Shown: positions 2 to 314 of the stretch, piece by piece | How positions within the stretch are numbered: the first letter of the stretch is position 1 | How the letters are laid out: each line of letters opens with the position of its first letter | Sequence record: X15716.1 | Origin: a phage | Strand: one strand, 5' to 3' | DNA length: 314 bases | Notes under the pieces: generated by a model | What the model saw: only the letters and a program-made list of their open reading frames with translations | What the model was told of the DNA's origin: nothing | The model's database searches: none | Program-made: the position numbers and the translations under genes

Positions 2-220
2 GAAGTTGAGCATTACCCAATTGAAATGTCTGTTGGTTCTGGTGGTGTTTGTTCTGCTCGCGATTGTGCTACTGTTGATATTCATCCTCGTACTTCTGGT
101 AATAATGTTTTTGTTGGTGTGATTTGTTCTAGCGCTAAATGGACCTCCGGTCGTGTGATTGGTACCATCGCTACGACTCAGGTTATTCATGAATACCAAG
201 TCCTTCAGCCGCTTAAATAA
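2..220 (+). CDS. G: Microvirus major spike protein G, C-terminal 72 codons plus stop; 5'-partial, CDS continues upstream of the window
   Basis: Frame is open from position 2 (gaa gtt gag cat tac cca att gaa atg…) to TAA at 218-220, so the ATG at 26 is an internal Met. The translation [72 protein letters not shown] aligns with the recalled phiX174 G C-terminus (DC.T.D..PRT.GNNV.VG … QVI … LQPLK conserved, one indel). 47 of 72 codons end in T, typical of phiX-like phages. Coding GC is about 42% against about 60% downstream. Confidence 0.85.
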
Positions 221-227
221 AAGGCTG
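206..227 (+). other. Weak hairpin straddling the G stop codon: 5-bp stem (cagcc/ggctg) with 12-nt A-rich loop containing TAA
   Basis: 206-210 cagcc is the reverse complement of 223-227 ggctg; the loop 211-222 is gcttaaataaaa. The large loop makes it only marginally stable. Confidence 0.25.
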
Positions 228-235
228 CCGCACTC

Positions 236-270
236 CCGGTTAGATGCCTGCCCAGTGTAGGGCAGACCGG
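236..270 (+). other. Outer 5-bp stem (ccggt/accgg) enclosing the 248-265 hairpin; possible coaxially stacked compound structure
   Basis: 236-240 ccggt is the reverse complement of 266-270 accgg. Position 266 is immediately 3' of the inner hairpin's last base (265), which would allow stacking. Short stems like this can arise by chance. Confidence 0.35.
248..265 (+). other. Stem-loop in viral-strand ssDNA/mRNA: 6-bp GC-rich stem (ctgccc/gggcag) with 6-nt loop (agtgta)
   Basis: Direct inspection: 248-253 ctgccc pairs perfectly with 260-265 gggcag (5 G:C and 1 T:A); the loop is 254-259. Confidence 0.6.
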
Positions 271-314
271 TACGGAGATACCCGATAAACTAGGAACGTG
301 GAAGGCGTTAGCCG

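Follow-up and report, generated by a model that had tools for sequence, protein, structure and literature searches.

The last 94 nucleotides of the DNA analysed here, positions 221-314, are very probably (about 93%) the 5' two thirds of the origin of complementary-strand synthesis of coliphage alpha3, an element that fills the region between genes G and H and that is the homologue of the origin of phage G4. The whole stretch, which comprises 314 nucleotides of record X15716.1, is hereafter referred to as the window. Among the defining features of the G4-type primase-dependent origin family of Bullavirinae that could be tested, all are found, save that stem-loop II is absent and that the start site and a part of hairpin I are cut off by the end of the window. 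The origin itself is already known, since Sims, Capon and Dressler described it in 1979; according to the title of their paper, the sites where the negative strand is initiated in St-1, phiK and alpha3 are dnaG (primase)-dependent origins (J Biol Chem 254:12615, cited in PMC13037366). As a discovery, the result therefore matters little, being the re-identification from raw sequence of an origin that, as far as this title and its citation tell, was sequenced and assigned as primase-dependent in 1979. What the analysis adds is that a long-range helix is better supported by covariation than the obvious local hairpin, that stem-loop II of G4 is dispensable in the alpha3 group, and that the module occurs in rare plasmids of E. 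coli, which could help to define the minimal features recognised by primase. Apart from a deletion of four nucleotides, AGCC, the element in the window is ordinary.

The window and the spacer between genes G and H

Megablast and a multiple alignment identify the window as coliphage alpha3, corresponding to X60322 4740-5057. The best megablast matches among the phage records are the alpha3 entries X60322, DQ085810 and NC_001330, with an identity of 98.7% over all 314 bases, followed by St-1 (93.6%), phiK (92.3%) and then further alpha3-like coliphages. The shortfall of 1.3% to alpha3 is due to a single event, since in the multiple alignment 314 of the 314 aligned bases are the same as in three alpha3 records (X60322, M25640 and DQ085810), and the sole difference is a 4-nt deletion, seen as a gap at AGCC. 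The alpha3 genome X60322 is reportedly that of Kodaira et al. 1992.

The first part of the window, 2-220 on the plus strand, is the 3' end of gene G and encodes the C-terminus of the major spike protein. The frame that begins at position 2 matches positions 110-175 of the 175 of the Pfam profile Phage_G (E 2.8e-12) and is the same as the alpha3 G coding sequence. Because this frame terminates at the TAA stop codon, 218-220, the segment 221-314 is a non-coding spacer. A hydrophobic open reading frame of 38 codons, which has a TTG start and overlaps gene G in another frame of the plus strand, can also be noticed at 6-122. It was rejected as a gene, as a stop codon interrupts it in both St-1 and phiK, and it can most likely be explained as a by-product of T-rich codon usage.

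Alignment to alpha3, St-1, phiK and the G4 origin shows that 221-314 (plus strand) are the initial 94 nt of the intergenic spacer G-H. This spacer is the complementary-strand, or minus-strand, origin of alpha3, which acts on the viral plus strand. These 94 nt correspond to 98 nt in the alpha3 reference, where the spacer between the end of gene G at 4959 and the start of gene H at 5095 measures 135 nt. Beyond the end of the window, alpha3 has 37 nt more before the ATG of gene H, and the continuation expected past 314 is CCTTCCCTCCTGCTAAGCCCAAAAAGGAG...ATG. The original prediction had considered a start of gene H within a few nt of 314, with neither conserved origin stem-loops nor a CTG motif, as a finding that would speak against an origin. 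The H start codon of alpha3 begins instead 38 nt past the window end, and hairpin I and a CTG lie in between.

The same prediction took the GC-rich spacer of at least 94 nt after gene G for a candidate complementary-strand origin in the arrangement of alpha3, St-1 and phiK, and set it apart from phiX174, with its very short G-H spacer, and from G4, with an origin between F and G. This context agrees with the records. The window is alpha3, and the G-H spacer measures 135 nt in alpha3, 136 nt in St-1 and 135 nt in phiK, while that of phiX174 is 8 nt; the annotation of the G4 record puts its origin between F and G. The G+C content is 59.6% in the spacer versus 42.3% in positions 1-220. Across the alpha3-like group, the spacer is conserved far more than the adjoining G gene, and it is 91-93% identical in phages whose G gene has diverged too much for megablast.

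Homology to the G4 origin and the predicted start site

From one end to the other, the G-H spacer of alpha3 can be aligned with the F-G spacer of G4, with an overall identity of 72%. This alignment, for which the spacer was extended to gene H and compared with G4, alpha3, St-1 and phiK as had been proposed, bears out the candidate origin, as the homology to the annotated G4 origin (V00657 3884-4019) covers its whole length. The identity can be divided into three blocks: 81% over window positions 220-285, 29% over 286-299, and 82% from 300 onwards, past the window end. Within the first block, the segment 272-284 on the plus strand, ACGGAGATACCCG, is a conserved linker that is near-invariant in the phages and in the plasmid copies described below; in G4 it corresponds to the region of the 5' arm of stem-loop II. 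The variable block, 286-299 on the plus strand, is located where G4 has the 3' arm of its stem-loop II, and there is no equivalent helix in the alpha3 group.

The G4 record annotates an "RNA primer of replication" at 3970-3997 and the origin of complementary-strand synthesis (rep_origin) at 3998. This annotation coincides with hairpin I of G4, composed of GGACGGCG, AAAGC and CGCCGTCC, and with the CTACTG that follows it, in which the CTG is 3996-3998 and its T is 3997. The alpha3 counterpart consists of GGAAGGCG, TTAGC and CGCCTTCC, followed by CTCCTG. The homologous CTG of the alpha3 reference is found at +10 to +12 after window position 314, in the block CCTCCTGCTAAGCC, which is conserved with CCTACTGCAAAGCC of G4. 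Judging by homology, the start T of alpha3 would be X60322 5068, in CCTCCTGC, 11 nt past the window end. If the primer is made as in G4, the predicted alpha3 primer of 28 nt would be 5'-AGGAGGGAAGGCGGCUAACGCCUUCCAC, and window positions 298-314 would template its 3' part. The original prediction had listed two CTGs on the plus strand of 221-314, at 225-227 and 248-250, and had suggested that the initiation site may lie beyond the window. A recount gives the same two and no other, and the position of the homologous CTG is in line with the suggestion.

Several features are common to the origins of G4 and alpha3. Both have the long-range stem III, in which an A is bulged, an 8-bp hairpin I with the loop motif GCGNNAGC, a CTG start that lies 3' of this hairpin and directly precedes AAGCC, and, at the 3' end, the ribosome-binding site of the downstream gene. 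The two origins differ in their location, which is between F and G in G4 and between G and H in alpha3, in the loop, which is GCGAAAGC in G4 and GCGTTAGC in alpha3, and in the context of the start, which is CTACTG in G4 and CTCCTG in alpha3. Furthermore, G4 has a stem-loop II of 6 bp (CGGAGA/TCTCCG), which the alpha3 group lacks. The negative-strand origins of alpha3, St-1 and phiK are at the same locus and agree in lying after gene G and in having stem III, the linker and a hairpin I with GCGTTAGC; St-1 and phiK are 92-94% identical to the window. The motif GCGTTAGC has been described in hairpin I of St-1 and alpha3 (PMC13037366). Compared with the reference alpha3 origin, the window is without AGCC (269/270) and ends inside hairpin I. 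Of the origin, it thus includes stem-loop III, the linker and one half, the 5' one, of hairpin I, while the CTG start site, the remaining 3' arm of this hairpin and the ribosome-binding site of gene H are missing. Lacking the start site and the other half of the hairpin, the window alone would not be a working origin.

In the G4 origin, primase and SSB alone suffice for priming; the stem-loops leave SSB-free stretches that are bound by two primase molecules, synthesis begins at the T of a CTG that lies 3' of three stem-loops, the primer is up to 28 nt long, and after priming the Pol III holoenzyme turns the circle into a duplex (PMC6783573). By homology with G4, the viral ssDNA of alpha3 would enter the cell and be coated by SSB, except for the folded origin. 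The stem-loops may phase SSB in such a way that short SSB-free flanks are left, to which the host DnaG primase could bind, needing neither DnaB nor another protein of the primosome. Primase would then begin an RNA primer opposite the T of the 5'-CTG-3' that is just 3' of hairpin I, and this primer, copied back through hairpin I up to about 28 nt, would be extended by the Pol III holoenzyme to give the duplex replicative form. The phasing of SSB, the binding of primase and the exact primer are steps that we infer for alpha3.

Folding and covariation of the spacer

The minimum-energy fold of the 94 nt as ssDNA contains the nested hairpins that had been predicted. They are centred on CTGCCC (248-253), paired with GGGCAG (260-265), and the stem is extended by CGGT (237-240) with ACCG (266-269) and by CTCC (233-236) with GGAG (274-277). 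However, the folding energy of this piece is unexceptional, with a z of -0.90, and 36 of 200 shuffles fold as well. The energy by itself therefore does not set the structure above chance. For comparison, z is -1.88 for the whole alpha3 spacer and -4.69 for the G4 spacer. Judged from the aligned sequences, conservation and covariation do show a structure beyond chance where the energy does not. Two pairing models were tested for covariation on 21 sequences, 17 alpha3-like and 4 G4-like, and a second test used 18 sequences, which include two plasmid copies and two metagenomic copies.

Stem-loop III can be described as a long-range helix on the plus strand. Its 5' arm, GGCTGCC (223-229), pairs with 261-265 and 267-268 of the 3' arm, GGCAG(A)CC (261-268), in which A266 is bulged. 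The pairs are G223-C268, G224-C267, and C225-G265 to C229-G261. In the set of 18 sequences, this helix is Watson-Crick in 99.2% of cells and has two compensatory pairs, one of which is T-A in 6 sequences versus C-G in 12, and the other A-T in 3 sequences versus G-C in 15. The same helix is seen in the minimum-energy fold of G4.

The stem noticed in the original prediction is the local hairpin CTGCCC/AGTGTA/GGGCAG (248-265, plus strand). Because the 3' arm GGGCAG is common to both, the local hairpin and the long-range helix are mutually exclusive. The local hairpin has no compensatory change, a T.G pair is found in 12 of the 18 relatives, and three of its six pairs are broken in plasmid CP062859; the substitutions of helix III turn its pairs into T.G or G.T in most relatives. 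It was rejected as a conserved structure on account of the lack of compensatory change and of the T.G pairs. On naked ssDNA it is nevertheless the form predicted to dominate in alpha3, with a pair probability of 0.93 versus 0.02 for the long-range helix, whereas the long-range helix dominates in G4 (0.90) and in NC28 (0.81). The two are best seen as alternative conformers, of which evolution has kept the capacity for the long-range one. The suggestion that the hairpin corresponds to an upstream stem-loop of the origin thus stands as regards its region, which is that of stem-loop III, but the supported pairing is 223-229/261-268 and not the local 248-265. Within the alpha3 clade, the local hairpin becomes perfect through the change to A264, but T226 compensates for this change, so that the long-range pairing is kept.

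Hairpin I (300-314, plus strand) is cut by the end of the window. Its 5' arm GGAAGGCG consists of 300-307 and its loop TTAGC of 308-312, while 313-314 are the first 2 nt of the 3' arm; the mini-hairpin motif GCGTTAGC is located at 305-312. In the alpha3 reference, the hairpin is complete, with an 8-bp stem that has the 3' arm CGCCTTCC and a pair probability of 0.99. It is paired in 100% in the set of 21 sequences, with one compensatory pair between the alpha3 group and the G4 group. In a metagenomic alpha3-like phage, SKEJ01012116.1 (105-250, minus strand), a C in the 3' arm of this hairpin is replaced by T (GCGTTAGTCGCC), which gives a G.T pair in the 8-bp stem; it is the sole natural variant of this stem seen within the alpha3 group.

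The helix of G4 stem-loop II, CGGAGA/TCTCCG, is formed by the 4 sequences of the G4 group only, and 45% of cells are paired overall. It was rejected for alpha3, as the G4-type pairs are missing throughout the alpha3/St-1/phiK group and not just in this window. A replacement helix was not found among the 17 alpha3-like sequences. The three-stem-loop picture therefore does not carry over unchanged, since stem-loop II of G4 is not conserved in the alpha3 group.

The AGCC deletion, copies outside the phages and other readings

The junction of the 4-nt deletion is at 269/270 on the plus strand, where alpha3 has ACCGAGCCGTACGG and the window has ACCGGTACGG. It is an even question whether the copy in the window is damaged or mis-read, AGCC having been lost either by an error of sequencing or assembly or by a real mutation that weakens the origin. 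AGCC is present in X60322, M25640 and DQ085810 and in all alpha3-like relatives, and the GCC at this site is invariant across the alpha3 group, G4 and the plasmid copies. A gapped pattern spanning the site was scanned against viral, metagenome and genome contig collections; it matched 13 contigs in the viral collection and one in each of the other two, every one of them with the full spacing, and the deletion allele was not found in these collections. The remainder of the window is 100% identical to alpha3, and the deletion adjoins the palindrome CCGTACGG, within a GC-rich stretch (CCGAGCCGTACGG) that would be a setting for error. Against damage stand the predicted folding, which is unaffected by the deletion (-23.2 vs -23.1 kcal/mol, with the same pair probabilities), and the linker between stem III and hairpin I, which already differs by 2 nt between G4 and alpha3. 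This reading disputes the integrity of the copy in the window, not the identity of the element. In the minimum-energy fold of wild-type alpha3, AGCC pairs with GGCT (223-226), a pairing that is lost in the window. A closing helix GGCT/AGCC was rejected as a conserved element, as beyond the GGC/GCC core the T-A pair becomes C.A or T.G in relatives.

Close copies of the alpha3 origin are also found in a few small non-mobilizable plasmids of E. coli, of 8-9.6 kb, with an identity of 82.6% over 117 nt. The copy is located at 1083-1201 in CP057337.1 and at 7025-7143 in NZ_CP062859.1, on the minus strand and antisense to all plasmid genes in both. Further plasmids with a copy are CP057350, NZ_CP062904 and CP057168. 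The plasmid copies keep stem III, ACAGAGATACCCG and CTCCTGCTAAGCC, and in place of the original hairpin I they have one remodelled around the mini-hairpin motif GCGAAGC. They retain a decayed start of gene H, CAGCTATC for CAGCTATG, in which ATC replaces ATG. The persistence of this remnant may point to a capture of the module from an alpha3-like phage, and the plasmids would then use it to recruit the host primase. The plasmids have genes for an AlpA-type HTH protein, for a small-terminase-like protein and for a resolvase, and one product weakly matches a replication initiator; because of these genes they resemble phage satellites. The element was found in only 2 of 5,426 complete E. coli genomes.

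The plasmids R1/R100, F and ColE2 carry G4-type single-strand initiation (ssi) signals. These classical signals gave no match in blastn with the alpha3 origin at E<=0.01, and they are therefore much more distant. Both the plasmid ssi signals and the copies in the small E. coli plasmids could be described as portable primase-priming modules outside the microviruses, comparable to the alpha3 origin, although the element of the small plasmids is antisense to genes, unlike the alpha3 origin. In phages of the G4 group the module occupies the spacer F-G, and in those of the alpha3 group the spacer G-H. Its function is independent of the neighbouring genes, since the G4 copy is at F-G and the plasmid copies are antisense to genes. 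A broader and tentative proposal, which we consider somewhat improbable, is that the origin forms a self-contained priming cassette of ~130 nt that can move horizontally, rather than a fixed part of the microvirus genome, and that the AGCC deletion is a real, tolerated allele of its linker.

GC-rich hairpins that are directly 3' of a stop codon, on the transcribed strand, could also serve chiefly in the RNA, by terminating transcription or by stabilising the G message at its 3' end, comparable to the terminators that follow genes of phiX174. We regard this as very unlikely for the main role of the hairpins, while a secondary role in RNA is possible. None of the hairpins is followed by a T run, and a scan of the alpha3 G-H region for sigma-70 promoters and intrinsic terminators gave 0 sites; a terminator was rejected as the main function. 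An Rfam scan of the region at E<=1 gave no match. Moreover, G4 has the same module at another gene junction, and the plasmid copies are antisense to all genes.

The primosome assembly site of phiX174 (PriA/n', in the F-G hairpin) likewise starts the complementary strand from an intergenic hairpin, and it needs the full primosome. No phiX174 record is among the matches to the alpha3 spacer or to the G4 spacer. That the spacer is a site of this type, which needs DnaB, DnaC and DnaT, rather than a primase-only origin, would fit the general knowledge that phiX174-type microviruses use one in an intergenic hairpin, but it is practically excluded by the homology to the G4 origin, which extends over the whole length and includes the primer template and the CTG, and the 1979 paper describes alpha3 as dnaG (primase)-dependent in its title (cited in PMC13037366).

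A further relative of the alpha3 origin is found in JAEWGQ010000432.1, an 8.8-kb contig named "MAG: Actinomycetes bacterium". At about 2700-2815 on the minus strand, this contig has an origin-like element that is diverged and belongs to the plasmid type. Here hairpin I, otherwise of 8 bp, has shrunk to GGCGCTAGCC, which keeps only the GCGNNAGC motif and is located directly before CTCCTGCTAAGCC. The assignment of the contig to an actinomycete looks doubtful, because its relatives are E. coli plasmids.
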